IMG/VR virus record: IMGVR_UViG_3300050026_000188
DNA length: 47,912 bases
Reading direction: 5' to 3' (one strand)
Source: a virus
Shown: positions 962 to 47,200 of the stretch, piece after piece
Layout of the letters: every line of letters begins with the position of its first letter
How positions within the stretch are numbered: the first letter of the stretch is position 1
The notes under the pieces: model-generated
The model's database searches: none
What the model saw: the letters and a program-made list of their open reading frames with translations, nothing else
What the model was told of the DNA's origin: nothing
Position numbers and translations under genes: made by a program

Positions 962-1639
962 ATGAAGTTTTACGTTTACGCCCACAAAACGATATCCCCG
1001 CGTAAGGCGGGCGAGGTCTTTTATATCGGCAAAGGGCAGCGACGGCGCGCTTGGCTCGCAACTGGGCGCAATCCTCACTGGCAACGGGTTGCATCCAAGT
1101 ATGGATTCTCCGTCATTATTCTCGCGGACGGACTAAGCGAAAAGGCGGCTTTTGACCTAGAGAAGTCGATCATTCTCATTTGCGGCCGGGCGGCTCTCTG
1201 TAACCTTACAGACGGCGGCGAAGGCATCTCGGGTGCTTCGGAAGAGATTTGCCGGAAGATCAGCGAGCGTCACAAGGGTAAACCCAAGAGTGCTCAGCAT
1301 AAACAGAAAATAGCGGCATCGCATAAGGGGATTCGGCCATCAGAAGAAACCCGAGTCAGACTCAGAGCACGCCGACCGTCCGAAGAAACTCGCGCAAAAC
1401 TCAGTGCTTCTCAAAAGGCTCGCAATATAACCGCTCCCTCAGATTTTGCCGAGCGTAGCGCTTCCATGCGAAAGGCCGTTACTTGCTCCAACGGCATGAT
1501 CTTTGATTCGGTTAGTGCTGCTGCCACATGGGCTCGGAAGAACGGCTTCCCGAAAGCGGCTACAAGCAATATCAGCAACGTCTGTAATGGCCATCGCCCA
1601 TCAGCTTGCGGTGGCCTGACCTGGGCATTCGTCAAATGA
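962..1639 (+). CDS. GIY-YIG homing endonuclease with NUMOD3-like repeats
   Basis: N-terminal FYVYAH...GEVFYIGKG...R motif (GIY-YIG); twice-repeated SEETR..L (NUMOD3-like); free-standing immediately upstream of the large terminase. Confidence 0.8.
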   Translation: MKFYVYAHKTISPRKAGEVFYIGKGQRRRAWLATGRNPHWQRVASKYGFSVIILADGLSEKAAFDLEKSIILICGRAALCNLTDGGEGISGASEEICRKISERHKGKPKSAQHKQKIAASHKGIRPSEETRVRLRARRPSEETRAKLSASQKARNITAPSDFAERSASMRKAVTCSNGMIFDSVSAAATWARKNGFPKAATSNISNVCNGHRPSACGGLTWAFVK

Positions 1640-3099
1640 TTTCCATTACTGAGGACGAAACCGAGGAAGCCGCTGCCGAAGAGATATTCGCCCGTCGCAA
1701 CGGGCAGAAGACGATGTACGGGTATATCAAATACACGATGCTTGGTTATAAAACATCGACATTTGCCGAACGAGTATGCGCGGCGATTGACAAATTTATA
1801 ACTGATGTGCAAGCGGGCAAGCGTCCGGTTTTGATTCTTCAAGCTCCCCCGCAGAGCGGAAAATCTGAAATAGCTTCTCGCAAACTACCGGCTTATTTAC
1901 TTGGCAGGTTCCCCGATTGGCGCATTGCGGCTTGCAGTTATGGTGATGAATTGGCTGGAGCAATGGCGCAAGATGTTCGCCGAAATATCAACTCGCTTGA
2001 GCACCAAAAGCTATTTCCAGCCCCGGAAGAAAAGAAGAAATACGACGTAAACCGAATGGGAGATTTTACTGCGCCAGGTGGCACTGGCAGTTATTTGGGG
2101 GTGGGTGTCGGGGGCGGTCTTACTGGCAAGAGCGCGACCATTGGAATCATCGATGATCCAATCAAAAACGAAAAGGAAGCGCTCAGCGTTACAACTAAAG
2201 AGGGGCTATGGTCTTGGTATCAAGCTACTTTTACAACGCGGCTTTCCCAAAATTCAGGTCAAGTCATAATGGCTACATCTTGGGCGGTCGATGATCTGGT
2301 TGGGCGCATCATCGATCACTTCGCCGGCGATCCCCGTCTTACTCATTTGCGATTCCCGGCGATCAACCTGCCCGATGAAGTCGGATATAACCCCAAATTA
2401 CCAGAAGGTGCTCTCGTTCCCGAGCTTCACAGTCTCGAAAAACTATATGAGACTAAAGCTCTTTTTTCCGATTATTGGTTTTCATGCTTGTATCAGCAGA
2501 GCCCGAAGGCTCTGGGCGGCAACGTCTTCAAGGATTTTTGTATTCAGTATTACAACCCGAACGATCTGCCGAAGAAATTTGACAAGGTAATAGCGTCTTG
2601 GGATTGCACTTTCAAAGACACGGACGGGACCGATTTCGTAGTCGGGCAGGTATGGGGCAAAAAGGGAGCCAACAGTTATCTACTTGATCAGATCCGCGCT
2701 CGCATGAGTTTCAGCGTTACATGCAAAGCCATCGTTACCCAGAAACTAAAATGGCCGCAGATTCGCGAGGTGCTGATTGAGGACAAGGCTAACGGACCGG
2801 CAGTTATTGACGTGCTCAAGGCTCAGGTGCCTGGCATCATCCCGATTGAGCCCGACGGCTCGAAGCTCGCCCGCGCCCATGCGGTTACATGCTACTGGGA
2901 AGCGCTCAACGTATGGCTTCCTAATGAAGCTCTTTGCCCGTGGATAAAGGCTTACGTCTCCGAGATGACTACCTTCCCGGCGGCCGCCCATGATGATCAA
3001 GTGGATAGTACGACTCAGGCGCTCCGCCGGCTCTATCCCTTATTCGGAAGGCTCAAAATAAATCGGAATGCCATAAACAAGGCACTTGGGATAAGGTAA
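1636..3099 (+). CDS. terL: Terminase large subunit
   Basis: Walker A-like PQSGKSE, Walker B-like IGIIDDP, C-terminal nuclease motifs (ASWDCTF, AAAHDDQVDS); the ATG at 1636 overlaps the endonuclease stop (ATGA); the ORF track starts at 1606 with an alternative codon. Confidence 0.85.
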   Translation: MISITEDETEEAAAEEIFARRNGQKTMYGYIKYTMLGYKTSTFAERVCAAIDKFITDVQAGKRPVLILQAPPQSGKSEIASRKLPAYLLGRFPDWRIAACSYGDELAGAMAQDVRRNINSLEHQKLFPAPEEKKKYDVNRMGDFTAPGGTGSYLGVGVGGGLTGKSATIGIIDDPIKNEKEALSVTTKEGLWSWYQATFTTRLSQNSGQVIMATSWAVDDLVGRIIDHFAGDPRLTHLRFPAINLPDEVGYNPKLPEGALVPELHSLEKLYETKALFSDYWFSCLYQQSPKALGGNVFKDFCIQYYNPNDLPKKFDKVIASWDCTFKDTDGTDFVVGQVWGKKGANSYLLDQIRARMSFSVTCKAIVTQKLKWPQIREVLIEDKANGPAVIDVLKAQVPGIIPIEPDGSKLARAHAVTCYWEALNVWLPNEALCPWIKAYVSEMTTFPAAAHDDQVDSTTQALRRLYPLFGRLKINRNAINKALGIR

Positions 3100-3105
3100 T
3101 AATCT

Positions 3106-4614
3106 ATGACCTGGCTCCGTAATTTGTGGGATCGCTTCCGTAAGACACCCGCGCCGTTCTCAGTGACACCCGCCCCCGAACGTGGGGAGGGCTTAGCGCG
3201 GGCTCTCGCGAAGGCGAAAGAGACGGGCGGCCGCAAGAGCTATTGCTATCCCGTCAAGGCTCCCGATCTGATGCCCGGAGTTGTGCCCGCCACTGCGAAA
3301 TCTGGGATCGCGATGGATGCGAATTTCTCCGCGATGAATGGGGTACCAGGCGCGGCCGGCTACGCTTATGGTGATTCCGCCGGCTTCCCGGGATACCCCT
3401 ATCTCGCTATGCTCGCGACTCGCGCCGAATATCGGGCGTTTGCGTCCACCCTGGCGACAGAACGCACGCGGGAATGGATCGTGCTCAATAGCACGGATAC
3501 CGCCGGCGATGAGACGAAGACGAGGATCACCGAACTTACTCAAGCGCTCAAAGATATCAAACTGCAAAAGGTTATTCGGCGAGCGGCAGAGCAGGATTGT
3601 CTTTACGGCCGCGGGCAGATCTTTATCAAGATCAAGGGCGCTGATGACTCCCTTCCGCTCATCCTCAGCAATAAGACAATCAAAAAGGGCAGTTTCGACA
3701 GCGTTACGAATGTTGAGCCCATTTGGACAACGCCCAGCGCTTACAACGCTCTTGATCCAACGGCCGCGGATTTCTACAAGCCTTCTAAGTGGTGGATGCT
3801 CGGGAAGGAAGTTCATGCGAGCCGGATGATGACGATGATCACGCGGGAACTTCCGGACATACTCAAGCCCGCCTTCAATTTCAGCGGCATGAGCTTGAGC
3901 CAACTTGCAGAGCCCTATGTTGACAATTGGCTTCGCACGCGCCAGAGCGTCTCAGATCTGATCAATAACTTCTCAATCACTGCTCTCAAAACCAGCATGG
4001 GGCAAGTATTACAGGGCGGAGATGGACCGGACGCCGATGGTACCGATCTCTTTGAACGCGCCGATTTATTTACGGCCGGCCGAAGCAACAAAGGGCTCAT
4101 GCTGCTCGATAAGGACAGCGAAGAGCTAGTGCAAGTAAACACGCCCCTGGGCGGCCTGCATGAGCTTCAAGCGCAAGCTCAAGAGCAGATGTGTTCCGTT
4201 AGCCGTACCCCGGCGATCATCCTTACTGGCATCTCTCCGAGCGGGCTAAACGCTTCGAGTGAGGGCGAGATCAGCACATTTGAGGATTGGAACGCCGCTC
4301 TGCAAGAAGCCTATGATCGCGAGCCGATAGAAACAGTGCTCAAGGTTCTACAACTTTCGATGTATGGCGAGATTGATCCCGATATTACTTTTGCGTTTGT
4401 CCCGTTGCGGCAGATGACAAAGAAAGAACTCGCGGAGATCCGGACGGCCGACAGCACCACGGCCGGAACTTACATTGACCGCGGCGTGATCTCTCCGGAG
4501 GAAGAGCGCGAACGCCTGGCGCGAGATCCGGATAGCGGGTACCAGGGGCTAGATATGAGCCTTGAAATTGCAACTCCAAATGAGGGGAATACAGACAATG
4601 AAGACGATGAATAA
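3106..4614 (+). CDS. Portal protein (DUF1073-like)
   Basis: About 500 aa ORF directly after the large terminase; by-eye resemblance to DUF1073-type portals; acidic C-terminus. Confidence 0.65.
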   Translation: MTWLRNLWDRFRKTPAPFSVTPAPERGEGLARALAKAKETGGRKSYCYPVKAPDLMPGVVPATAKSGIAMDANFSAMNGVPGAAGYAYGDSAGFPGYPYLAMLATRAEYRAFASTLATERTREWIVLNSTDTAGDETKTRITELTQALKDIKLQKVIRRAAEQDCLYGRGQIFIKIKGADDSLPLILSNKTIKKGSFDSVTNVEPIWTTPSAYNALDPTAADFYKPSKWWMLGKEVHASRMMTMITRELPDILKPAFNFSGMSLSQLAEPYVDNWLRTRQSVSDLINNFSITALKTSMGQVLQGGDGPDADGTDLFERADLFTAGRSNKGLMLLDKDSEELVQVNTPLGGLHELQAQAQEQMCSVSRTPAIILTGISPSGLNASSEGEISTFEDWNAALQEAYDREPIETVLKVLQLSMYGEIDPDITFAFVPLRQMTKKELAEIRTADSTTAGTYIDRGVISPEEERERLARDPDSGYQGLDMSLEIATPNEGNTDNEDDE

Positions 4615-8186: not shown

Positions 8187-9218
8187 ATGGACCCAATACT
8201 CGTAGCGCTCGCAATGGACGCCGGCATTCACTTCATGGGCACGGAAGCCATGTTGCAACTGCCGAACGTGGCTCACAGCATCCGTGTCGCAATGGACGCT
8301 CAGCCGGCACTAATCACAACCAGCAACGCCGGTATCCCCGCGTTTCTTTCGACGTACATCGATCCCAAGTTGATTGAGATCCTGGTTGCGCCGATGAAGG
8401 CCGCGGAGATCGTCGGAGAGGAAGTCAAAAAGGGCGATTGGACAACGGATACAGCGATGTTCCCCGTTGTGGAATCAACCGGCGAGACTTCGAGCTACGG
8501 CGATTACAGCAATAACGGCGTGGCCGGCGCGAATACCAACTTTCCCCAGCGTCAGAGCTATCACTACCAGGTGATTACTCAGTGGGGCGAGAAGGAACTC
8601 GCGAAGGCGGCTCTTGCGAAAATCGACTGGGCGAATCGCGTCAACATCGCGAGCGTTCTCACCCTCAACAAATTCCAGAACAAGACGTACTTCTACGGCG
8701 TGGCCGGCCTGCAGAATTACGGCTTGCTCAACGATCCCAACCTTTACGCCCCCATCGCCCCCACCAACGAGGGCGGAAACATTACCTGGGCGAACAAGGA
8801 TGCTCTCGGGATCTACGCCGATATCCTCGCGCTCTTCACTCAGTTGCAGGCGCAGACCGGAAATACATCTCTGGTTGAGATGGATGCAAAGATGACGCTC
8901 GCGCTGTCTTCTGGCGCGATCGTCAACCTCGGTAAAGTCACTCAGTTCAACGTCAACGTCAAGACGACGATCAAGGATAACTTCCCCAACCTGCGAATCA
9001 TGACGGCTCCGGAATACTCGACAGCGGCGGGCAACCTTGTGCAACTCATCGTTGACGAAGTTGAAGGGCAGCGTACCGTTGAAGTCGCTTTCACCGAGAA
9101 ACTGCGGGCTCACCCGATTGTTATCGAGATGAGCGCCTTCAAGCAGAAGAAATCGCAGGGAACTTTCGGAAGCATTGTTTATCGCCCAATGTTTATCGCG
9201 GCGATGCTCGGCGTATAG
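8187..9218 (+). CDS. Major capsid protein (DUF2184-like)
   Basis: About 345 aa ORF in the capsid position; GGGGGA before ATG at 8187; family assignment is by gene order and general resemblance only. Confidence 0.55.
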   Translation: MDPILVALAMDAGIHFMGTEAMLQLPNVAHSIRVAMDAQPALITTSNAGIPAFLSTYIDPKLIEILVAPMKAAEIVGEEVKKGDWTTDTAMFPVVESTGETSSYGDYSNNGVAGANTNFPQRQSYHYQVITQWGEKELAKAALAKIDWANRVNIASVLTLNKFQNKTYFYGVAGLQNYGLLNDPNLYAPIAPTNEGGNITWANKDALGIYADILALFTQLQAQTGNTSLVEMDAKMTLALSSGAIVNLGKVTQFNVNVKTTIKDNFPNLRIMTAPEYSTAAGNLVQLIVDEVEGQRTVEVAFTEKLRAHPIVIEMSAFKQKKSQGTFGSIVYRPMFIAAMLGV

Positions 9219-12079: not shown

Positions 12080-13602
12080 TGACTATTCCCGCGTCTCGAA
12101 TTGCAAGAGTAAACCCCGGCGTTGTGAATAGCGGCGGAACGTCGCTGGTGATGAATGGGCTCTTCCTCACTCAAAATACCGCGATGCCCACGGCTTCGGC
12201 TTTCAACTTCGCGAGCCCCACGGCGGTAGCAAATTTCTTCGGTCCAGCATCCGCCGAAGCCGCCCTAGCAAAGATCTATTTCGCCGGCTACAGCAATTCC
12301 ACGATCAAGCCTGGCGGGATGATCTTCGCTCCCTTCAATCTTGCCGCTCGCTCCGCCTTCCTGCAGAGCGGATCGCTCGCCGGATTGAGCCTGGCACAGC
12401 TTGAAGTGCTGAGCGGTACGCTCATCCTCACCGTTGCCGGCGTGGTAGAGACTTCGGCCGCGATTGATCTGTCTACCGCCGGCAGTTTCAGCGGCGCGGC
12501 TACTCTCATTCAAGCCGGTTTCACAACTCCCCCCTTCACCGTTGCGTGGAATCCCGTTACCAGTGCGTTCGTGATCACCACCACGGCAACCGGCGCAACG
12601 GAGACGATCACTTTCGCAAGCGGGACGCTCGCCGCCGGGCTCAATCTGACTCAGGCAACCGGCGCGATTCTCTCGCAGGGAGCCGCGCTCGATACGCCGG
12701 CTACCGCAATGGCGAACGCCGTGCGCGTGACGCAGAACTTCGCGAGCGTTGTAACGCTATGGGAGCCGACTCTCAGCGATAAGGAAGGCTTCGCGGCCTG
12801 GTTCAATGCGGCCAACCTTGAATATCTGTATCTCGGTTGGGATTCCGATCCGAACGCATCGGTACTCGGAAATACAACCTGTTTCGGCGCGGTAACGAAG
12901 GCCGCTCAGTGGAACGGCGTTGCGTGCATCTCCGGAGATCCGGCGTTAGCTCTCGCGAGCGGCACCACTCTCGCCGCGCTCGCGCTCAACGTCGCTACGT
13001 TCGTGGCCGGCGCGATTGCTTCGATCAACTCCGGCGCAACCAACGGGCGCGTTACTCTCGCCTTCCTTGCTCAGTCGGGGATGGCTCCCACGGTTGCAGA
13101 CGATCAGATCTCTCAGAATTTGCTCGCGAACGGTTACAGCTTCTACGGATCGTATGCGACGGCGAATGATGGCTTCGTTTTCTTCTACAACGGGCAGATG
13201 CCGGGCGAGTTCGGTTTCATCGATTCCTTCGTCAATCAGATTTACCTCAACGCACAATTTCAGTTGGCGATGCTCACGTTGCTTACCAACATCGGAGACT
13301 TCCCCTATACCCCATCCGGTTACGGGTTGCTTCGTTCGGCGCTGATGGACCCTATCAATGCGGCGCTTGCTTTCGGAACGATTCGCACGGGAGTTACTCT
13401 TTCGGCCGCGCAGATCTCCGAAGTCAACCTGGCCGCCGGCGTTGACGCTGCAAGCGTGATTCAGACGGCCGGCTACTACCTGCAGATCCTTGACCCTGGC
13501 GCTCAGGTTCGCGGGCTCCGCGGCAGCCCTATCGTCAACTTCTGGTATAGCGACGGCGGCGCGGTCCAATTTATCAACATGGCAAGCATTGACATTCTGT
13601 AA
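12079..13602 (+). CDS. Tail sheath protein (DUF3383-like)
   Basis: 507-aa ORF followed by a tube-like gene, then chaperone with frameshift and tape measure: the contractile-tail order. Confidence 0.65.
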   Translation: MTIPASRIARVNPGVVNSGGTSLVMNGLFLTQNTAMPTASAFNFASPTAVANFFGPASAEAALAKIYFAGYSNSTIKPGGMIFAPFNLAARSAFLQSGSLAGLSLAQLEVLSGTLILTVAGVVETSAAIDLSTAGSFSGAATLIQAGFTTPPFTVAWNPVTSAFVITTTATGATETITFASGTLAAGLNLTQATGAILSQGAALDTPATAMANAVRVTQNFASVVTLWEPTLSDKEGFAAWFNAANLEYLYLGWDSDPNASVLGNTTCFGAVTKAAQWNGVACISGDPALALASGTTLAALALNVATFVAGAIASINSGATNGRVTLAFLAQSGMAPTVADDQISQNLLANGYSFYGSYATANDGFVFFYNGQMPGEFGFIDSFVNQIYLNAQFQLAMLTLLTNIGDFPYTPSGYGLLRSALMDPINAALAFGTIRTGVTLSAAQISEVNLAAGVDAASVIQTAGYYLQILDPGAQVRGLRGSPIVNFWYSDGGAVQFINMASIDIL

Positions 13603-37824: not shown

Positions 37825-38457
37825 TCATTTGCTCACCCGCTTTAGAAATAATGCCTTCTGACGTTCAATAGCCGCCGAGTACGCCGCCCAGTACGCCGAG
37901 TCCGCCGCCGAGTCCGCCGCCGAGCGCGCCGCCGAGCGCGCCGCCAAGCGCGCCGAGTACGCCGCCGAGTCCACCGCCGAGTCCACCGAGTCCACCGAGT
38001 CCACCGCCGAGTTCGCCGAGTCCGCCGCCCAGTACGCCGAGTCCGCCGCCGAGTCCGCCGCCGAGTACGCCGCCGAGTACGCCGCCGAGCGCGCCGCCGA
38101 GCGCGCCGCCGACTTTTTATCTTCTAACTGAGCAAGCGTAATTTTTCCGTCCATAAAATCGCTCGCGGCTTGCAGCGCTTCGCGAGGGCGCTTGTCGTCA
38201 GGAAACGCCTTCTCAAAATTACCCAGAACTTCCATTGCAAAATCAACAGAGAGTAAAACGATGGCTCGCTTACAGGGCTCCGTAGTCGCTCGCATTGCCC
38301 AGATCGCATGATCTAAGCCGTTGGATTTGAGGATGCGTTTTAGACTGATTTCTTTATCGTCAGTCCACTTGGAGCCGAGTGAAGCTGTCAGAGTTTGTAA
38401 TCCAGCAGAGCAGGCGTTTGCCTTGTGAAGTAGAGCGAGCGTGGTTTTGAGCATCAT
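37825..38457 (-). CDS. Protein with a C-terminal SAA(R/Y/D) tetrapeptide repeat array
   Basis: ATG ATG at 38457 with AGGAGG upstream; non-repetitive N-terminal domain of about 110 aa, then SAARSAARSAAYSAAYSAADSAADSAYW... repeats. Confidence 0.45.
   Translation of the reverse strand: MMLKTTLALLHKANACSAGLQTLTASLGSKWTDDKEISLKRILKSNGLDHAIWAMRATTEPCKRAIVLLSVDFAMEVLGNFEKAFPDDKRPREALQAASDFMDGKITLAQLEDKKSAARSAARSAAYSAAYSAADSAADSAYWAADSANSAVDSVDSVDSAVDSAAYSARLAARSAARSAADSAADSAYWAAYSAAIERQKALFLKRVSK
37871..38112. repeat. GC-rich 12/9-bp tandem repeat array (GCCGCCGAG + 3 nt) inside a coding region
   Basis: About 20 consecutive units readable directly in the sequence. Confidence 0.85.
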
Positions 38458-38483
38458 TGTGAGCGCCTCCTGAGCGCTGATAC

Positions 38484-38512
38484 AGAGTATCAATTTACTA
38501 GTAAGCTGTCAA
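38484..38512 (-). promoter_or_regulatory. Promoter-operator cassette copy 1
   Basis: Minus strand: TTGACA - 17 nt containing TTACTAGTAA - TACTCT, then leader with AGGAGG. Confidence 0.4.
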
Positions 38513-39237
38513 ACATCAGGCTCTACCAGTGGAGCCAGACATTTCGCGGTAATACTGCCGATCCGTTCGGGCGTGAGCTTGGCGGCCTTCTGGCGAGCGT
38601 CTAAGAGCGCTTGCTTGGGGGTATCGCCAGCGCCGCCGCGTTGCCCGGTGTTGATCTCGGTTATGGTGAAACGGACGTTATCATCAGCGACGGTCCCGAA
38701 GCGGATGAGCGCAAAGCTCAGGAGAGGAAACTCGTGGATGCTTACGGGTACGCCCATCCGCTCCGTCTTCGGATCTGTTACCAGTTTGCCGGCAACCATT
38801 ACGGGGATCATTCCCTCTCCGTCTTCATCAAACTTCGCCCGCTTGAGCGCCTTCCTTTGATCCGTCGTCAACGCGCCGGTAAGCGATCTCTTTTGAAGCC
38901 GCTCGCTCTCTTTGTCACTCCAAGCGCTGAGAGTCTTGATCGCAGCGCCGCGGGCAATGATCAGGAAACGCGCCCGCGTCTTTACGTGGCCGGCCTGCCC
39001 CACCACTTCAAGCAGACGGGTACCAACCGGCAGCTTTACGCCGAAGGGCGGATGCCCCTCCTCTAAACCCATTCCTTCGATTTCGTGCTCACTCTCAACG
39101 ATCCTCACCGATTGGATGGTTACGCCCTTCGCCCAGGCTCGCAGGCGCTTACCGTCAATGCAGGCCGGCGCGTGCCCTTCTACGGGGATCGCTACGATGG
39201 GGGCTTTGGCTTTGAGCAGGCTCTTGATATTCATCAT
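38509..39237 (-). CDS. Hypothetical early protein
   Basis: 242-aa ORF downstream of a promoter-like cassette; no recognised motif. Confidence 0.35.
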   Translation of the reverse strand: MMNIKSLLKAKAPIVAIPVEGHAPACIDGKRLRAWAKGVTIQSVRIVESEHEIEGMGLEEGHPPFGVKLPVGTRLLEVVGQAGHVKTRARFLIIARGAAIKTLSAWSDKESERLQKRSLTGALTTDQRKALKRAKFDEDGEGMIPVMVAGKLVTDPKTERMGVPVSIHEFPLLSFALIRFGTVADDNVRFTITEINTGQRGGAGDTPKQALLDARQKAAKLTPERIGSITAKCLAPLVEPDV

Positions 39238-39243
39238 TCCTCT

Positions 39244-39272
39244 AATCTACCAGGTTACTAGTTATCTGTCAA
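39244..39272 (-). promoter_or_regulatory. Promoter-operator cassette copy 2 (variant palindrome, leaderless layout)
   Basis: TTGACA - 17 nt with TAACTAGTAA - TAGATT, then 6 nt to ATG. Confidence 0.4.
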
Positions 39273-39459
39273 TCCAATTCTTTGCCATTATCTCAGCGTC
39301 CCGGCGAAGGATCGTTAGCTCAACGTCGCCCCCGAGTGCCTGACGTTTGAAGCCCAGGGCGACGGCGTATTTATACGGGCTCTGATCTACGGGACCGGCG
39401 ATCTGGCTCACCTTCGCCCAGCGCCGGCCGCGGCGATAGTATTTGACGGGCGGGATCAC
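39262..39459 (-). CDS. Hypothetical small protein
   Basis: 65-aa ORF. Confidence 0.25.
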   Translation of the reverse strand: MIPPVKYYRRGRRWAKVSQIAGPVDQSPYKYAVALGFKRQALGGDVELTILRRDAEIMAKNWIDR

Positions 39460-39502
39460 CAGCGGTCAGCTTTCGCGAAGCAAACGATGATGACTAGCCT
39501 GA

Positions 39503-40180
39503 TCATGCGTCCAACCTCTCGGGGCGGCCGTTGTCGTCTTCGTCGAGATGCCGAGCGGTTTCGGCTTCCTCAGCGCGTATGCGAGCTTGCACCGAGAGAA
39601 AGTGTAGATCGTCGGCGTCAGTCCCCGTGGCATCGCGATCACGCCCAAGAGAGTTTTGCAGATCAAATAGTTCGGGGTGATTAGCCTTGAACGTTTTGAA
39701 GAAATAAGCATCCCGCTCAAGGCCGCGAGTCACTGGTAATTTATTGGTCAGAAGATCCGGCATTTGAATCGAAGGGTCTATTTCCATTGCTAGAGCGAGC
39801 ATCCTGGCCTTGAAATACTCACGGTCGTCCCAGTGGAGAACGATGCATATGGGGGCCAGATCTTGACGCTTAGGCTTCGGGCGGAGAGCTAGTTTACGCT
39901 CTTGCAGTTCAGCGTGAGCTTTGGCGAGTTCGATGCGCTGTCGCCGCTGATCACTCTTTTCGCGCTCGATAGCTAACCGCTCTTCCTGTAACTCAAGCCG
40001 CCGCGCTCGGTTAGCGTCACTCTCAGAAGATGAGTATGCTACGGCTGATCCCCGGATGCACATCTCACAAGTGCTGCTCTGCAAATAACGCTCAGCGATG
40101 TGTCCATTTTTACAGGGCTCACCTGTAAAATACTTTTTGAGCCCCAACGTTATTGCTTGCTGCCGCGTAATTATTTCCAT
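39503..40180 (-). CDS. Zinc-finger plus coiled-coil protein (regulator candidate)
   Basis: N-terminal KKYFTGEPCKNGHIAERY...CEMC; Arg/Glu/Gln-rich coiled segment; first gene leftward of the AT-rich control region. Confidence 0.4.
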   Translation of the reverse strand: MEIITRQQAITLGLKKYFTGEPCKNGHIAERYLQSSTCEMCIRGSAVAYSSSESDANRARRLELQEERLAIEREKSDQRRQRIELAKAHAELQERKLALRPKPKRQDLAPICIVLHWDDREYFKARMLALAMEIDPSIQMPDLLTNKLPVTRGLERDAYFFKTFKANHPELFDLQNSLGRDRDATGTDADDLHFLSVQARIRAEEAETARHLDEDDNGRPERLDA

Positions 40181-40435
40181 GAGTCAAACATTACGCTGGG
40201 AATTATTATCTGTCAAATACCGTATGTAGGATTACCCCGTCGCCCTCACCCCGAAGGCACTTCCGTAGCGCTCTAGGAACGAAGTTTGTCGAAATCAAAT
40301 GTCGTCATATCTATGTATGTAATGATTCCTACCTATTAGTATGTACTATTTCTATTTCTCCTTATTTCTCTCTATGTGTTGATTTGATATATATAAGGGT
40401 AATAGAGAAAAGAGGGTGTAACTCCAATAGAATCA
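40181..40435. promoter_or_regulatory. AT-rich divergent control region with short direct repeats
   Basis: AT-rich island in a GC-rich genome between divergent genes; repeated TATGTA and ATTTCT motifs. Confidence 0.4.
40188..40216 (-). promoter_or_regulatory. Promoter-like element without the palindrome (leaderless layout)
   Basis: TTGACA - 17 nt - TAATGT, then 7 nt to ATG of gene 39503..40180. Confidence 0.35.
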
Positions 40436-41335
40436 ATGACACCCAATAACTACCCCGTAATTACACCGCTAGCCATTCGGGGTAATTCTAAGCGCCCGTT
40501 TGCATTGTGGATGCCCGGCGCGGTAATGTGGGAAGCCAGGGATATGCTCAGTGATCGTCAAAAACGTTTCGTCTTCCATCAGGCTCGCATTACTGATGGT
40601 GCAAAGGCTTACGTATTGGCAGGTTACAGCGAGCAGGGAGCGGCTCAAGGCGCTTCGCGTCTGTTACAGAACGTTGAGATACAGGAAGCTATAGAGGTTG
40701 AGCGGGCGGACCTGGCCCGTGTCGCGAGCCTGAGCCCCGAATGGGTTTTGAATCGATGGATGTTGATCGCCAGCGCGGACCCGAGAGATCTGATCCATAC
40801 CCGCATCGGCTGCTGTCGGCATTGCTGGGGCATTGATAACAAACGGGAATGGATGGAACACGAATACGCTACCGCGCTCAACGAAGCTCTGACTTGCATG
40901 TTGCTGCCGCCGGCCTTCGAGGGTGGCCTAGGGTACTCGCCGACTCGCGAGCCTAACCCTGACTGCCCTAAGTGCAAGGGCGAAGGCTTGCCGCGGACCT
41001 GGCTCGCCGACTCCCGCAAGCTGAGCCGTTCGGCCGCGGCTCTCTTCGCTGGCGTAAAGCAGACGAAGGATGGGATTGAGATCAAGATGCACGATCAGCC
41101 CGAAGCGCTCAAGTCGCTCGCCGATTACCTGGGGATGCAGAACAAGAGCAGCGCCGATGTAAAGCTGGCTGCGGCTCTGGTGGTGGGCGGGAGCGCTAAG
41201 GATCTCTCAGACGATGAGCTTGCCGGCATCATTGAGCGGGGGCGGTTGCGGAGGGCTCGAGCTGCGACTTTGGGGGTATCTGCGGGGGTATTATCGCCGG
41301 CGGCGTTGCCAAGTAAGACAATCGAGGGCACTTAG
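40436..41335 (+). CDS. terS: Terminase small subunit-like protein (SPP1 G1P / Terminase_2-like) with Cys-rich insert
   Basis: LSDRQKRFVFHQARITDGAKAYVLAGYSEQGAAQGASRLLQNVEIQEAI...RVASLSPEWVLNRWMLIASADPRDL matches the small-terminase N-terminal pattern; CCRHC / CPKC cysteines. Confidence 0.65.
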   Translation: MTPNNYPVITPLAIRGNSKRPFALWMPGAVMWEARDMLSDRQKRFVFHQARITDGAKAYVLAGYSEQGAAQGASRLLQNVEIQEAIEVERADLARVASLSPEWVLNRWMLIASADPRDLIHTRIGCCRHCWGIDNKREWMEHEYATALNEALTCMLLPPAFEGGLGYSPTREPNPDCPKCKGEGLPRTWLADSRKLSRSAAALFAGVKQTKDGIEIKMHDQPEALKSLADYLGMQNKSSADVKLAAALVVGGSAKDLSDDELAGIIERGRLRRARAATLGVSAGVLSPAALPSKTIEGT

Positions 41336-41467
41336 TGCCGGCTTCGAGTCCCTAAGTAGGAGCGATGCACTAAAAAGCCCCCTCAGTTGAGGGGGCTGGC
41401 GGCACTCGGGGAGCCGGTTAGATGTGCATAAGAGCGCGATTGGATGCGAGCGAACGGGGGAAGCGTC

Positions 41468-41641
41468 TCAGCGTCGCATTCTTCCGGCGAAGGGATCAGG
41501 GCGGCCCAGGGCTGCTGTGACGCGCGCCAGCTCGATCTGATCAAGCATCGGCAGATCGGGTTTGGAGCCGATCTGATCTTTGATCGTCAGGGCTAAGATG
41601 GTGAGCAAGCTGAGTGCGGCAGGGATAAACAAAATGTACAT
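41468..41641 (-). CDS. Small membrane protein
   Basis: ATG with GGAGGA upstream; hydrophobic helix ILFIPAALSLLTILALTI. Confidence 0.3.
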   Translation of the reverse strand: MYILFIPAALSLLTILALTIKDQIGSKPDLPMLDQIELARVTAALGRPDPFAGRMRR

Positions 41642-41659
41642 GGAATCCTCCAAGTTGAG

Positions 41660-41688
41660 ATATTACCAAGTTACTAGTAAGCTGTCAA
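41660..41688 (-). promoter_or_regulatory. Promoter-operator cassette copy 3
   Basis: TTGACA - 17 nt with TTACTAGTAA - TAATAT, then leader with GGAGGA. Confidence 0.45.
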
Positions 41689-41858
41689 GAGTTATTTTCA
41701 TTTATTTCGAGCGTTTCCGCGTCGCATTCTTCCGGCGAAGGGATTGGGGCGGCCTTTACAACCTGGGCGCATACCAGGTGCATCGCGGCGCGGCGGGCTT
41801 TGCTACTGGGGGACGCGAGCAGGATCGCCAAGCTATCAGAGAGGATCTTCGCGGTCAT
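41685..41858 (-). CDS. Hypothetical small protein
   Basis: Short ORF; 3' end carries the same ~35-bp element as the neighbouring gene. Confidence 0.25.
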   Translation of the reverse strand: MTAKILSDSLAILLASPSSKARRAAMHLVCAQVVKAAPIPSPEECDAETLEINENNS

Positions 41859-42103
41859 GCTGCTACCTCCCACGCCCACGCGCCAGGCTTGTAAGTGCTC
41901 TGCGAGAGCTTCGAGCCGCGGAGAGTGATCACGCGAAGGCTACCGTCTGCCCGCAACACCAGAGCGCCCCCGCGCCGGCGAGCCCAGGCGTTGACGGCCG
42001 CCTTCCATGATGCCGCTTTCGTGGCGTTCGCGAGATTGCGCCATTCGGCAACGGTGAGAAGGTTGGTAGGCTGAGCGTTCGGGTTGAAGTTCGTAACTGT
42101 CAT
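41855..42103 (-). CDS. Small protein, paralogue B (MTVTNFNPNAQPT... N-terminus)
   Basis: Shares N-terminus and 5' leader with the upstream gene. Confidence 0.3.
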   Translation of the reverse strand: MTVTNFNPNAQPTNLLTVAEWRNLANATKAASWKAAVNAWARRRGGALVLRADGSLRVITLRGSKLSQSTYKPGAWAWEVAA

Positions 42104-42406
42104 TTTTGGGGTATCCTCTCGACTGCAGATACAAGAGCCTCAGCGATCCGCCGCAACGTTGCAGCATCGAAGGCGTAGTTATTCGCGGCGTTGATCCTGG
42201 CGGCCATCTCTTCGCAGGTGAGTTCCGGCGTGTTGAGGTAACGAGTGATCTCTTGAAAGAGATCCCCAGTAACTTGGTAATCTATATATGCAGTCGAGAG
42301 GATACAGCAAAATGCTTTCGTGGCGTTCGCGAGCTTGGTAGGCTGAGCGTTCGGGTTGAAGTTCGTAACTGTCATTTTTGGGGTATCTTCTCGACTGCAG
42401 ATACAG
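42015..42406. repeat. Direct repeat of about 95 bp (42015..42133 and 42314..42406) carrying leader + N-terminal coding sequence of two adjacent small genes
   Basis: Near-identical copies differing by one 28-bp indel and one substitution. Confidence 0.8.
42100..42375 (-). CDS. Small protein, paralogue A (MTVTNFNPNAQPT... N-terminus)
   Basis: ATG at 42375; the ORF track starts at 42414 with an alternative codon. Confidence 0.3.
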   Translation of the reverse strand: MTVTNFNPNAQPTKLANATKAFCCILSTAYIDYQVTGDLFQEITRYLNTPELTCEEMAARINAANNYAFDAATLRRIAEALVSAVERIPQK

Positions 42407-42433
42407 ATTAGCAAGTTACTAGTAAGCTGTCAA
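42405..42433 (-). promoter_or_regulatory. Promoter-operator cassette copy 4
   Basis: TTGACA - 17 nt with TTACTAGTAA - TAATCT. Confidence 0.4.
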
Positions 42434-42825
42434 CATAATAATGAATCTAATTTATATTCGGCCTGCAGGCGAACGCGAACGGCGTCAAGCGCCAGACATT
42501 CGGCCTTTACGAATTCGTAAGCCTTCGGGAAGCCCATCGCCGGCAGTGCGTTGCGCTGAGCAAACTTCGCTTCCTGGGCGCGGTACTCTGGGGACTGGCG
42601 AAGGATTGCTTGAGCCGCCCTGGTGCGTTCGGCGCGGTACTCATCAGCCGCCGTCTTCGGGTGAGCGATGCCAGTGTTGCGGGTAACGCATACCGAGCCG
42701 TAATGAAGGATCTCACCAGATGAGAGAAGCTCAACGGCGAAGGTTCCCTTGAGCCCAGTCTTACCGCAACAATCGCAGTTTGTAACCTCATCAGTGAAGC
42801 CGAAGATCTTGAATTTGTTTTCCAT
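42430..42825 (-). CDS. Cys-rich hypothetical protein
   Basis: NCDCCGKTG ... C motif; ATG 6 nt downstream of a -10-like hexamer. Confidence 0.35.
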   Translation of the reverse strand: MENKFKIFGFTDEVTNCDCCGKTGLKGTFAVELLSSGEILHYGSVCVTRNTGIAHPKTAADEYRAERTRAAQAILRQSPEYRAQEAKFAQRNALPAMGFPKAYEFVKAECLALDAVRVRLQAEYKLDSLLC

Positions 42826-42831
42826 AAAGAG

Positions 42832-42860
42832 ATATTACCAAGTTACTAGTAAGATGTCAA
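42832..42860 (-). promoter_or_regulatory. Promoter-operator cassette copy 5 (leaderless layout)
   Basis: TTGACA - 17 nt with TTACTAGTAA - TAATAT, then 6 nt to ATG; the 44-bp surround is nearly identical to copy 3. Confidence 0.45.
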
Positions 42861-42869
42861 GAGTTATTT

Positions 42870-43026
42870 TCAAATTCTTTTAGAAGCAATCGTTCCCTTG
42901 CTTCGCGGTATCCTGAGCTTGCGATAGAGGGTTCCCCTTCCAATCTGGATCAGCTTGGCTGCTTGGCGCTTATCGCCGTCGCATCGACGTACGGCCTCAT
43001 GGATCAGTCGCATCTCAAGCTCTGCC
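42870..43026 (-). CDS. Fis-type helix-turn-helix DNA-binding protein
   Basis: MAELEMRLIHEAVRRCDGDKRQAAKLIQIGRGTLYRKLR matches the Fis/NtrC C-terminal HTH pattern; ATG at 43026 (ORF track starts further upstream). Confidence 0.5.
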
Positions 43027-43153
43027 ATCGTTGGCAGTGTGTCGCCAAGTTCAAGGATCGGCTTCGGGAGTGGCCGCCGGCATCGTACACAGAAGGCTCG
43101 AACAAACTGATTTAGACCGCATGAGCAGCGCACTGATGGCCGCACATCGCACG

Positions 43154-43354
43154 TCACTCCGCGCCCCCGATCTCAGCGATCAGCGCCCGTATGCTCTCAA
43201 CGCTCCAAACCCGAATACGCGGGCTGAGCAGCCGGCCGGCCGGGAAGCGGCCACTTTTGACGCCCGCCCACCAGGTTGCACGGCAGACGGGGATGACGGC
43301 GAGTATTTGGGGCAATCTCACAAAACCAACTTCAGGAAGGTTCATACACTCCAT
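43154..43354 (-). CDS. AlpA-family regulator / excisionase-like HTH protein
   Basis: FVRLPQILAVIPVCRATWWAGVKSGRFPAGRLLSPRIRVWSVESIRALI matches the AlpA pattern. Confidence 0.6.
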   Translation of the reverse strand: MECMNLPEVGFVRLPQILAVIPVCRATWWAGVKSGRFPAGRLLSPRIRVWSVESIRALIAEIGGAE

Positions 43355-43442
43355 TGTAGTCCATTACCCTCTATCGTTGGGCATAACACGCAAGCGCCAG
43401 TTACCTTGACGTGACTTTGGTTACCGGGGTACTGTTGGCGAT

Positions 43443-43703
43443 ATGGCAACCCCCAACCCGCTAGACGAGATGAATTGGGAAGATCGCTTTATGTATGCGT
43501 TCCGCAGCGTGCTAGTGCTTGAGAACAGGCTCGAAGATGCGCTCGCACTACTCAAAGAGCAACGCCCTGAGATTGTGATTTTGCACAACGGCGATCAGGT
43601 TCAAAAGCTACGCGAGCGCCATCAGATCAGACAGCTACGCAAAGAAGGTGTGAGTTATCGGAACATCGCGAAGCGCATTCAACAGTTGCGGAAAGTAATT
43701 TGA
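43443..43703 (+). CDS. Hypothetical small protein with basic C-terminus
   Basis: 86-aa ORF; C-terminal RQLRKEGVSYRNIAKRIQQLRK could be a DNA-binding helix. Confidence 0.3.
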   Translation: MATPNPLDEMNWEDRFMYAFRSVLVLENRLEDALALLKEQRPEIVILHNGDQVQKLRERHQIRQLRKEGVSYRNIAKRIQQLRKVI

Positions 43704-44133
43704 CAGCGGCAATTACTGCGGGTACTGTGTTGGCTTACGGAGAGCGGCGAGACTCAACTCGTAGGGGCCATCTCTCGCCGCTTCCCCGGCAACTAACTGC
43801 GACCAAACGTCACAGCGAGCAAAAGAGCAATGTGTTGGCTTTCCGCCCCCGCACTGCTCCGATGCAAATGGCAGCCTAAAAACTGTCGGGGTACGCCGGA
43901 TGCTCTACCTGGCAACAGAAAAGGCCGGCACTATTTTAGGAGACAATCAGTGACCGTCGCAGAGCAAGTCAACCAGATCCAAAAGAAACTGCGCGAGCGG
44001 ACGATGGGCTCGCAGTTGCCGGTTGATCGCGTAGATGCTCCGTGCTGGTTGGACCTGCCGCGGGAGCGGGTGACGCTTAGATGGGGGTATTTGACGGAGA
44101 GACAGGGACACTAAGCGAGTTTGTAACCTTCAC

Positions 44134-44165
44134 AAACTAGAAGGGATACGGGCAATTGATCGCGC
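44134..44165 (-). terminator. Stem-loop between convergent genes (candidate intrinsic terminator)
   Basis: 11-bp perfect stem GGGATACGGGC / GCCCGTATCCC with a 10-nt loop; on the minus strand it is followed by UUCUAGUUUGUG. Confidence 0.4.
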
Positions 44166-44231
44166 CCGTATCCCCAAAAATACCCCTCTCGGCTTGCGCT
44201 TTACCCGCCCAGAGGGTGGTGCTAGTTACTC

Positions 44232-47200
44232 CTAGTTACCAATGCAAATATAGCGAATTGCGTCACTACCTAAACCGCCATCATCTGAAAATGTCACCGA
44301 CGATCCACTTGTGTAAGTAACTCCCAGTGCGTTAAGATTGATGGTGCTGACTGTTGCGCTCGTCATACAGGCATAAGAGGATGAACTGGTAAATATGGCT
44401 GACCCGCTAAATGTCACCGTTGCAGCACCACCAGAAAGCGTCGTCAAGCCCATCACTGTGTGCGCAGATGTCAGTTGCGTCCCGGCGGCGTTGTAGAGCG
44501 TTCCACCAGGGCACCCCGTCCCATCCGCAAGGCAGTGGGCTTCTGGTACTCCGCTACCATTCAAGTCTGTGCTGCCCGCTCCTGCTGAAGATACACCTGT
44601 GCTACTTACTTGAAACTGGCTACTTGAACCAACGGATAGCAACGCCGCTGGCGAAGTCGTCCCGATGCCGACGTTGCCTTGGAAAATACCTCCACCTGTT
44701 CCAACCCACAGACTCTTCCAACGTTGGCCCGTAACCCCAAGGTTAATCGTATTATCGAAGGCGGGGGCCGGATTAAGACCAGTTGCGGTTAATTGCATTA
44801 CATCCTCATAAGCTGGGGAACCCGGCAGCTCAAAAGCGAGCGTGGTATACGTGCTCTGCGCACCAATCCTTAAAACATTATAGGTGCTGTCCAAATATAT
44901 AAAGGCTGGCGGCGTCTGCCCATTTATTACGATTGGGTTGGCAAAGACTGTAGGATTTCCGGCGATAGTCAGGCCGCCCGTGCGCAATGCGCCAGTGCCA
45001 AGATCAAGAGCCTGTACAGGGCTCGTCGTCCCGATACCGACGTTGCCGTTATTATCTATCCTGACCTTTTCCGTTGGTCCACTAAGACCATCATTTTGCG
45101 TGAGAAAACGAATCTGCGATAGTGTATTTTGCGAACCAGATACGATGTCAAGTATTCGTGCATAGATGCCTGCCGTTGGGAAATTTTGAGCTTGGTAAAA
45201 ATTGAAAACACCTTGGTCACTAATACCATATGTTCTTAAATTAGTATCAGTAGACGGATTTCCCAAAGACAACTGCCCACTCGGCCCCGTCGTCCCGATG
45301 CCGAGTCTATGATTCGTCGCATCCCAGAAGAAATTGGAATTGTCTTGTGCGATGGTTGAGCCATTTGAGAACAACACGGAGCCAGAGGTTAGCGAAGGCA
45401 AAGTGAATGTCCCGTAAGTATTTGTGTCCAGCGCAAACGTCCCTGCTGCCGTCATCTTTACGAATGGTGTGCCCGTAGTCCATGTCGGATAATTCAACGC
45501 GCCCCATGTGCCTACGGAAGGCAGAGCCGTGCATCCCCCGCTGGACATCAATGCGCCAGAGCAAGAGCCGGAACCAAACAGCGCCGTTATATCGCTGTAT
45601 AGCGGAGTGCGCCACGCCGTGTTCCCACTATTCGCCACGCCAATCGTGTTTGCTCCGGGGTAGGTCATGGTACTGCCCGGAGTCTGCCATCCCTGAGCTG
45701 TTGCCCCAGAGTTCATCCCCCAGACTTGGTTTGCCGTGCCGTTGGTGCTGAGGTTTGTGGCTGTGGATGAGTTGCCAGTAAAAGCGGCTCCATGAAGTGT
45801 CGCTAATCCGGCTGCACTACCGAAGTATTCATCAGTTACCGCAGCATTGCCAATTACTGCTGTGTTGGAACCTGCTCCAACTGCCGTCGATCCTACTACA
45901 ATTTCGTTTGTGTTACCATTCGCACTTGCCTGTGTGTTCTGCCCCAGGAAAGTCCCGTAGCTACCCGTTATATTATGATACCCAGTAGGAAGTAAAGTTC
46001 CTGCTAAATAGCCCGCTGCTGTATTACCATTGCCCGTAGTAGTGAACTGAAGCGCCCCACTTCCAATTCCGGTACTGTAACTCCCAGAAGAGTTTGTAGC
46101 TAGGGTATTATTTCCGATTCCTATGTTATTGCCCCCACTTGTAAGATTGTAGAGGGCAGAGTCCCCTAAGCCTATATTGTTACTACCTGTCTCTATGCCA
46201 CCGTAACCTATTGCCTCAGCACCTATCGCGATATTGAATGATCCAGAGGCACCAAGTAGGTTTGATGTACCTATGGCAATGTTCACTGTGCCGGTAGAAC
46301 TTGCTAAAGTGCTACTATTACCGATGGCAATCGAACTAGCTCCTCCATACGTCAAGGGCAAACCGCCCCCTAAATTCAGATTAGAAGATGGGATGGTATA
46401 AATTGCGACCCCACTATCCTGAACCTGGTCCCCTGTTCCGGTAAAGGTTACGGCATCATTGGCGGTTGCGCTGCCGGGTCCGGTGACTGGGTTGGTAAGC
46501 GCGAGTTGGAAGTCCGTAGCCGCATGAGTCGCCGCCGTCCCTACCGTTGTAGAACAGCCGCTCGCTCCGTTGCTCAGATCGCCACATGCTGCTTGACTGA
46601 ATGTTGCGCTGCCGTTCGACTTGACCGCGCCTGTCACGGCCCCCGCGTTGTCCGCCTTCGTGCCTTGTGCCGCCGTGGCATAAGCCGTGGACGCGGTGTA
46701 AGCCGCCGACCCAACCGCACCGCTGCCAAGCAGCACCGAGCCACTTCCATAGGTACTTAGCTCGCCCAGCACGCCGCTGTTGTTGTACTCGATGTGGCCA
46801 GTCGTGCCACCCGCAATCGTCGTGGTGCCTACGGTGATCGTTCCAGCAGATGCGGATATGGTACAGGTTCCACCCAGGGCGCAGTTCTGGCCGTTGACCG
46901 TAGTCACCGAGTTTGCTAAGGCTGCGTTCGGTACCGCCTCATACGTCACCGTGTTCGTACCGGTCACTACCGGTACGGTGTTGGTTGAAGGGCTGGAACC
47001 GTAGCTAACTCCATTCACCACTGCAACCGTGGGAGTTGCGGTCGTCACTGCTGTCAACTGCCCCGCTGCGTTGTAGGTGATAACTGGTATCGCTGTCGCG
47101 CTTCCCGTCGGCCCTGCCGCCGTAATGACCCCACCCGAGGGGACGTGGCTTGCCGATGTGCCGATAGGGAGGTAGGAATAGCCCACAGTCCCAGACGAGA

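Follow-up and report, generated by a model that had tools for sequence, protein, structure and literature searches.

Small terminases (TerS) of the G1P type, described from phages SPP1 and SF6, work in trans as oligomeric rings of 9 to 10 subunits that recognize the packaging site and hand the DNA to the large terminase (TerL), and in this family terS usually lies immediately upstream of terL. That order is a habit of the family, not a defining feature. The two genes are adjacent in F116, separated by one opposite-strand gene in LASTA and Skulduggery, by two open reading frames (ORFs) in Itty13, by 12 ORFs (3.2 kb) in Bcep22, and by 15 ORFs in CSP3, where the arrangement was termed "rather unusual" and not noted elsewhere (PMC10269572). 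Here we describe the terS locus of a viral genome from IMG/VR (record IMGVR_UViG_3300050026_000188; 47,912 nucleotides, the whole of which is herein called the window), in which 8,135 bp lie between the terS stop codon and the terL ATG. A sequence-only reading of the window had regarded this terS as displaced from terL by rearrangement. We come to a different view, to which we give a probability of about 0.8: the gene encodes a genuine TerS and stands in its ancestral place, a block of leftward genes was inserted downstream of it in an ancestor of the clade, and the split is shared clade-wide. The elements on which the argument turns are as follows (window positions):

40436 to 41335, plus strand: terS ORF, 299 aa, with the extent given to it by the sequence-only reading
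40793 to 41005, plus strand: Cys4 insertion (CCRHC...CPKC) of TerS, residues ~120 through 190, between the helical core and the C-terminal β-strands
1636 to 3099, plus strand: large terminase TerL, Terminase_6N/6C, phrog_38 at 2.6e-97
3106 to 4614, after terL: portal gene, Phage_portal_3

The terS ORF matches the Pfam family Terminase_2 (PF03592) with 70 bits (gathering threshold 26.1; E = 4.2e-19) and PHROG 51, "terminase small subunit," at 8e-27. Residues 38 through 238 cover positions 1 through 135 of the 141 in the Terminase_2 profile, which implies an insertion of ~65 aa. Searched with tblastn, the GenBank phages returned 67 records aligned over residues 38 through 236 at 30 to 45% identity; small terminase is the annotation of nearly all of them (F116, Bcep22, Itty13, LASTA, Skulduggery, and Stean are examples). 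With 60 homologs as input, AlphaFold2 gave a confident model with a mean predicted local distance difference test score (pLDDT) of 83.9 and values >94 for residues 40 through 220, whose closest solved folds in Foldseek are the SF6 (SPP1-like) G1P small terminases (Protein Data Bank [PDB]: 3zqq, 4zc3, and 2cmp). The N-terminal helix-turn-helix (HTH) DNA-binding domain of the G1P fold is present, and helices (80 through 112) and strands (185 through 218) follow in the right order in the monomer model; the full-length match to 3zqq is weak (template modeling score, TM, 0.37; E 0.075). Among PDB sequences, phmmer gave E 4e-5 for a "Pam5 small terminase" and E 0.8 for SF6. By prediction, the ORF is the phage's own small terminase, an SPP1/SF6 G1P-type Terminase_2 protein of a Cys4-insert subfamily; the G1P type is the one that the sequence-only reading had proposed.

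The coding sequence probably begins downstream of the annotated start, at ATG 40544, giving a protein of 263 aa (40544 to 41335), because the first residue of close homologs corresponds to M37 (MLSDRQKRF), and the 36 residues before it are unconserved and of low pLDDT. A purine-rich stretch precedes ATG 40544; none precedes ATG 40436. The GC content at third codon positions (GC3) of terS is 0.67 and resembles that of core genes (0.65 to 0.71 for capsid, polymerase, helicase, and primase), which fits a resident gene. Megablast of positions 39000 to 43500 found no match among GenBank phages, so there is no close sequenced isolate of this phage; the nearest TerS proteins are metagenomic, at 44 to 86% identity.

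Could the ORF instead be an HTH regulator, or a moron- or hijacker-type TerS homolog of the satellite kind, with the real TerS unrecognized elsewhere? The gene does stand alone among opposite-strand genes, and the short Cys-rich ORF without an HTH that lies 5' of terL in Bcep781-type phages indicates that TerS-like proteins in this setting can be unconventional. We nevertheless rate this explanation as very improbable. The ORF matched no regulator family in Pfam at E ≤ 0.01, and it shares its C-terminal motif, GVKQTKDGIEIKM..YLGM, with TerS proteins that adjoin terL; orthologs with 41 to 44% identity and the same Cys4 motif lie directly 5' of terL in loci L009 and L010. Nor did a second small terminase appear in the window, in agreement with the sequence-only reading, which had called this the sole one: comparison of the 39 larger ORFs with PHROGs gave no other terminase small subunit, tblastn of the window with the terL-adjacent proteins of B2, Bcep781, and RS51pmB gave nothing, and the ORF next to terL is a homing endonuclease, with no ORF between the two. 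A satellite or phage-inducible chromosomal island (PICI) that redirects packaging with its own TerS does not fit a genome that encodes TerL, portal, capsid, sheath, and tape measure and in which no further terS was found. The window genome is that of a complete 47.8-kb myovirus with its own replication genes, encoding head protease, capsid, sheath, tape measure, DNA polymerase, a Gp2.5-like single-stranded DNA-binding protein, exonuclease, helicase, and primase.

An exact 77-bp direct repeat at both ends of the window indicates a circular contig, whose true length is 47,835 bp; the distance between terS and terL is thus rightly measured on a circular map. The idea that their separation is an artefact of a chimeric or mis-circularized contig draws on the metagenomic origin of the assembly, on the repetitive and variable fiber gene in the interval, and on L012, an IMG/VR contig from another sample that breaks inside that gene. 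Both sides of the interval are, however, reproduced in other samples with 100% protein identity, the terS side from helicase to the end of the fiber gene by L012 and the fiber-endonuclease-terL-portal side by L020 and L021, and two more distant relatives carry terS, terL, and the same kind of block on one contig. We consider the chance of such an artefact negligible.

The genes to the left of terS are what place it. The left-hand synteny of the window recurs in six loci (L007, L008, L011, L032, L033, and L034), in the order 580-aa helicase, ~790-aa primase, a few leftward genes, a gap of 300 to 550 bp, terS, and leftward small genes; in all six, terS is the sole plus-strand gene between leftward ones. 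Two of these loci hold the whole interval on a single contig. L032 has terS (3501 to 4274), leftward small genes, integrase, two large leftward genes (841 and 452 aa), and terL at 12137 (7.9 kb), while L033 has terS (1527 to 2204), integrase, a leftward 857-aa gene, and terL at 8627 (6.4 kb); their TerL proteins are 84 to 87% identical to that of the window. The L009 and L010 orthologs abut terL, with an overlap in L010 and 265 bp between the genes in L009, in phages of the same family as the window, to which they are related in TerL (60 to 63%) and portal (56 to 63%) (for L010, helicase is 71% and primase 52% identical). Upstream of terS, both nevertheless show the arrangement of the window: helicase, primase, leftward genes, a divergent phrog_1081-type gene, and an AT-rich region with iterons. 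terS is near-adjacent to terL in L025 (TerL 72%), adjoins it in the outgroup Stenotrophomonas phage B2, and has a counterpart, the terS-like ORF gp19, directly 5' of terL in the outgroup Bcep781.

Because the upstream context is the same where terL abuts terS (L009 and L010), terS itself, the first rightward gene past the replication and early genes, has not moved; because adjacency is the outgroup state, the simplest history is the insertion of one leftward block between the two genes. The distance of about 8 kb given by the sequence-only reading thus stands, on the circular map, and so do the contents it listed for the interval (minus-strand genes, a giant fiber-like gene, and a homing endonuclease); the displacement does not, since synteny points to a block gained downstream of terS and shows a split common to all six loci. 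That the change was an insertion and not a deletion we infer from the outgroups. On this history, the clade ancestor would have gained a leftward block comprising small σ70-driven genes, an integrase with a permuted transfer-messenger RNA (tmRNA), and one to three large fiber genes, and in the window lineage the integrase would later have disappeared, together with the 5' part of the tmRNA gene. As TerS acts in trans, separated genes would carry no mechanistic cost, given that terS keeps its own promoter; this promoter would lie in 40181 to 40543, and a terminator at 41376 to 41397 would shield terS from convergent transcription.

The endonuclease gene bears on the alternative in which terS moved away from terL:

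962 to 1639, plus strand: free-standing GIY-YIG/NUMOD3-type homing endonuclease, phrog_314 at 3.4e-20, NUMOD3

Its N terminus (YVYAH...FYIGKG) is GIY-YIG-like, and its stop codon overlaps the terL start as ATGA. Four relatives (L022 and L023, with TerL 84 to 87% identical, and L032 and L033) have the fiber gene divergent from terL and no endonuclease; in L032, 30 bp lie between fiber gene and terL. The split is thus present without the endonuclease, which is therefore not its cause but, judged from these comparisons, a recent lineage-specific arrival; it would have landed just 5' of terL later, in the window lineage. GC3 of terL, the endonuclease, and the fiber gene (962 to 3099 and 44232 to 908) is 0.53 to 0.55, below the 0.63 to 0.72 of most other measured genes, and this segment may have been exchanged horizontally. 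A move of terS from terL into the early region, possibly by way of the homing endonuclease, as the sequence-only reading suggested, could appeal to the 8.1 kb of separation, to an endonuclease gene abutting terL, and to this hint of exchange. We think it quite improbable: the genes to the left of terS do not differ between loci with and without an adjacent terL, and relatives with closely similar TerL proteins share the split without the endonuclease. An observation apart concerns L027 through L030 (TerL 67%), in which the first 70 residues of TerL are encoded a second time, in diverged form, ~0.8 kb (800 to 1000 bp) 5' of the full gene, which suggests partial duplication or insertion (perhaps by an endonuclease) at the terL 5' end.

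Separation of terS from terL had also been presented as exceptional. It has precedents within this TerS subfamily, in CSP3 and Bcep22, and the gene order is therefore unusual but not unprecedented. The F116- and Bcep22-like phages differ from the window in being podoviruses with other TerL types, and their intervening ORFs are small and on the same strand, whereas the gap in the window clade is longer and holds leftward fiber genes, with integrase and tmRNA in relatives. What is new is the size of the gap (about 6.5 to 8.1 kb), its leftward content of lysogeny and fiber genes, and its conservation across a clade of uncultured myoviruses.

The sequence-only reading had further placed terS beside an AT-rich control region and suggested that the packaging site may lie in or near the gene. 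The following elements surround it:

39503 to 40180, minus strand: divergent neighbor of terS, 225 aa, with a 48-aa N-terminal Cys/His-rich domain, PHROG 1081 at 1.1e-16
40181 to 40543, strandless: AT-rich intergenic/control region in which iterons flank an AT-rich core
41272 to 41291, minus strand: pair of iteron cores at the terS 3' end (GGGGTA N6 GGGGTA in plus-strand reading)

Homologs of the phrog_1081 type lie divergent just 5' of terS in L008 through L011, L018, L025, and phage B2. The core at 40286 to 40435 has 30% GC against 56% for the genome, as had been noticed. The iterons that flank it are of the ATACCCCGTA type, with the consensus (A/T)TACCCCG(T)A, and occur in both orientations. 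Perfect TACCCCG copies lie at 40233(+), 40451(+), and 40478(−) in the window, with one-mismatch copies at 40247, 40462, and 40519; ~0.2 copies are expected in 363 bp, but the excess in the window would not be striking by itself. The comparison of loci is more telling. Arrays lie upstream of terS in L007 through L011, L025, and L032 through L034 (in the window, 40233 to 40525). Counted in 8 relatives, the homologous regions contain 3 to 11 TACCCC cores each, and that of the window contains three. The 450 bp 5' of terS in nine loci (4.05 kb) hold 64 cores, or 15.8 per kb, against 103 in the remaining 163 kb (0.63 per kb), a ~25-fold higher density.

The iterons also mark the other end of the gene. 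A pair with 12-bp spacing lies at the terS 3' end or just past the stop codon in six of seven split-clade loci and is absent from L009 and L010. It falls inside the coding tail in the window and after the stop codon in L007 and L034, which identifies it as an element at the DNA level; mere conservation of a Gly-Val peptide was rejected as an explanation for the same reason. No TACCCC cluster was found 5' of terL in L022, L023, L032, or L033, so the arrays accompany terS instead of marking where the structural operon begins, and a late promoter mark was rejected as their sole explanation. The type of repeat changes with the phage: ATACCCCGTA in phages with a Cys4 TerS, GTACTTGGGG in B2 (L005, 40514 to 40949), and an CCTTGCAAG-type repeat in L018 (9630 to 9850). 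The B2 TerS differs in its N-terminal half and is similar in its C-terminal half. Iteron type thus covaries with the TerS N-terminal domain, as is expected of TerS-binding sites.

SPP1 pacL/pacR and lambda cosB are repeated TerS-binding sites beside the terS gene. Like the lambda cosB R-elements and SPP1 pacL-pacR, known from established work, the array in the window consists of short repeats in both orientations with a bendable AT-rich segment, directly 5' of terS; unlike them, it has a second repeat pair 0.7 to 0.8 kb away, at the terS 3' end. Conservation of such arrays directly 5' of terS in every relative makes a nearby packaging site plausible, and the most likely candidate for the pac or TerS-binding site, as yet unproven, is the iteron array around the AT-rich core.

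Several points weigh against these conclusions. Iterons around an AT-rich core also classically mark replication origins or regulator operators. The array in the window is sparse (three perfect cores over 363 bp), its 500-bp bin is no denser than several others once one mismatch is permitted, and TACCCC is moderately enriched over 40 to 44 kb and recurs near the integrase in L007 and L011. A promoter of σ70 consensus for terS was not detected on the plus strand of 40181 to 40543. For the history of the split, the polarity of insertion versus deletion was read from outgroup comparison, and the window itself is a metagenome assembly known from sequence alone.

We therefore take seriously the possibility, which we put appreciably short of even odds, that the iterons and AT-rich core are not a pac site but a replication origin, or operators of a regulator such as the divergent protein with the phrog_1081 domain. 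The architecture itself is typical of origins, TACCCC also occurs 5' of leftward genes (42108 and 42380) as well as near those integrases, and the divergent neighbor gene, too, varies among phages with different iterons. Against an origin or operators, it is terS that the arrays accompany in every arrangement, and neither terL nor primase, and iteron type changes with the DNA-binding domain of TerS while the C-terminal half of the protein stays similar. The reading of the array as a candidate TerS-binding site is the one we prefer.

The Cys-rich insert of TerS, which the sequence-only reading had called unusual, is present (C126, C127, C130, C177, and C180) but is not unusual for the subfamily: in an alignment of the window TerS with 120 homologs, down to ~35% identity, C127, C130, C177, and C180 are invariant in 121 of 121 sequences, and 84% have C126. 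Searched exhaustively, 1.84 billion cluster representatives yielded 2,445 relatives at E ≤ 1e-3, of which 174 reach E ≤ 1e-30; the pattern CxxC-(44 to 77 aa)-CxxC occurs in 139 of 145 new top representatives, and the other six have both knuckles with a short spacer. The motif is, from these alignments, a trait of a subfamily that includes the annotated TerS of F116, Bcep22, Itty13, and LASTA, and is not peculiar to this phage; F116 gp38, Bcep22 gp36/CSP3, and the Itty13 TerS share 35 to 45% identity with the window protein over residues 38 through 236, Cys4 region included. SPP1/SF6 G1P (3zqq/2cmp) differs in having no such ~65-aa module between helical core and β-strands, and the SF6 chain (3zqp) has 164 aa against 263 aa in the window, where, moreover, terS is not adjacent to terL.

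In the model, the two knuckles adjoin strands 120 through 125 and 185 through 190, with a helix (141 through 153) between them and pLDDT >94 for the segment, which suggests a zinc-ribbon-like module with a variable tip. Motif and invariance together point to zinc binding by the four cysteines. No solved structure containing the insert was found in the PDB (phmmer and Foldseek), and the searchable literature held no mention of zinc in phage small terminases; a 2022 review gives zinc fingers for herpesvirus terminase subunits only. Two CxxCxGxG knuckles also occur in Bcep781 gp19 (L006, 15555 to 16067), which is unannotated, has no HTH, and ends in a C-terminal segment like the TerS motif (G.K..KDGIEIKM..YLG); it is possibly related to the Cys4 small terminases, in truncated form.

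Stenotrophomonas phage B2 is the closest sequenced isolate (TerL 53%, helicase 45%, and primase 42% identical). It shares with the window the myovirus plan and the succession of a divergent phrog_1081-type gene, an iteron and AT-rich region, and terS. It differs in that terS abuts terL, in a Terminase_2 TerS without the Cys4 insert, and in its iterons (GTACTTGGGG instead of ATACCCCGTA).

The block between terS and terL contains the following, in order from the terS stop codon:

41376 to 41397, minus strand: hairpin with T-run resembling an intrinsic terminator, 40 bp past the terS stop
41468 to 43354, minus strand: leftward small genes convergent on terS, including paralogous pairs (ORFs)
42870 to 43157, minus strand: Fis-type HTH protein (Pfam)
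43154 to 43354, minus strand: 66-aa gene with homologs near the integrase in L007 and L011
43786 to 43930, plus strand: permuted tmRNA remnant (tag-coding part and 3' flank), 82% identical to L033 3199 to 3344
44175 to 44142, minus strand: terminator-like hairpin of the giant gene (sequence scan)
908 across the junction to 44232, minus strand: giant fiber-like gene, ~1,500 aa, start ATG at 908

The sequence-only reading had set terS among opposite-strand neighbors, and these have predicted σ70 promoters. A 30-nt element close to the σ70 consensus (TTGACA-17-TAATAT, TG-extended) occurs three times on the minus strand, at 41659 to 41688, 42404 to 42433, and 42831 to 42860, and recurs in L008; no such match arose in 100 shuffles. 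The three copies are predicted to drive tandemly duplicated small leftward genes, and the hairpin at 41376 to 41397 would end leftward transcripts before they enter terS in antisense. An inverted partial copy of the element lies at 42268 to 42281. The N-termini of the paralogous small proteins read MTVTNFNPNAQPT, and the genes contain repeats (42060 to 42133 with 42332 to 42405, and 41462 to 41506 with 41710 to 41754); a TACCCC core occupies the Shine-Dalgarno position right before two of their start codons (42108 and 42380). Pfam and PHROG searches were essentially uninformative for the small genes of the block and gave no match for the giant gene. Outside the block, among the leftward genes 5' of terS, a 222-aa protein (37825 to 38493, minus strand) with a match to Pfam Imm5_like (2.8e-9) and a low-complexity (SAA/DSA)n repeat may be the product of an immunity or anti-defense gene.

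Relatives carry a complete permuted tmRNA in the block (L033, 2988 to 3295; L008, 14851 to 15163; L007, 13149 to 13447), with 72 to 75 bits over the full length of Rfam RF04321 (tmRNA_permuted; gathering threshold 47), and ARAGORN likewise calls tmRNA*. The tmRNA abuts the integrase in L007 and lies ~1 kb from it in L033. Alignment with these relatives shows that the acceptor part has been replaced in the window, where the remnant is visible by alignment alone; Rfam found no tmRNA in 43100 to 44300 at E ≤ 1. Tblastn with four integrases found none in the window, and the phage would thus seem to descend from a temperate ancestor by loss of the integrase. The permuted form hints at a host with a two-piece tmRNA (alpha- or some beta-proteobacteria, or cyanobacteria), and a paper on marine methylophages reportedly uses the phrase "two-piece tmRNA" 10 times (PMC9004378). 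The predicted tmRNA tags of the relatives are unusually long (e.g., ATERHSERKSNVLAFVPRMAAPMQMAA); if integration takes place in ssrA, lysogens may express a phage-derived tag.

A GGAGGG ribosome-binding site precedes the giant fiber-like gene, whose product starts like a signal peptide (MRTKILLALAL). The N-terminal domain shares 83% identity with that of the terL-abutting fiber gene of L032 and 100% with L020 and L021, whereas the middle and the C terminus are rearranged or have diverged among otherwise identical assemblies (L020, 52 to 5355; L012, 13800 to 13913, the contig that ends within the gene). The gene appears to be a host-range hot spot.

A more speculative consequence concerns the temperate relatives. 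We think it unlikely, though worth stating, that they are built-in lateral transducers, with attachment at the tmRNA gene, terS and terL at opposite prophage ends, and packaging directed outward. This layout needs attachment at the tmRNA gene and packaging in the direction of terS transcription; the putative pac would then lie ~1 to 3 kb from the prophage end, depending on the locus, packaging in situ would pass into host DNA almost immediately, and the window phage would be a derivative without integrase. On the same reading, terS and its iterons would make up a recognition cassette complete in itself, in which the DNA-binding half of TerS evolves jointly with the iterons and independently of terL. 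A one-genome-per-species scan with the clade TerS alignment found no integrated member of the split clade; the best match, at 41%, was in an Acidobacteriaceae metagenome-assembled genome.

This locus does not overturn the current understanding of packaging, since the two terminase subunits work in trans and genes lying apart are already on record. The Cys4 subfamily comprises at least 174 clusters at E ≤ 1e-30, with an invariant module, and includes the TerS of F116 and Bcep22. The candidate packaging-recognition repeat changes with the TerS DNA-binding domain, a relation open to test. The interval between terS and terL would be an insertion hot spot that captured a lysogeny module and host-range (fiber) genes, which is likewise testable. 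For annotation, terS need not adjoin terL; the reliable place to look for it in this clade is downstream of the replication module, past an iteron and AT-rich region.

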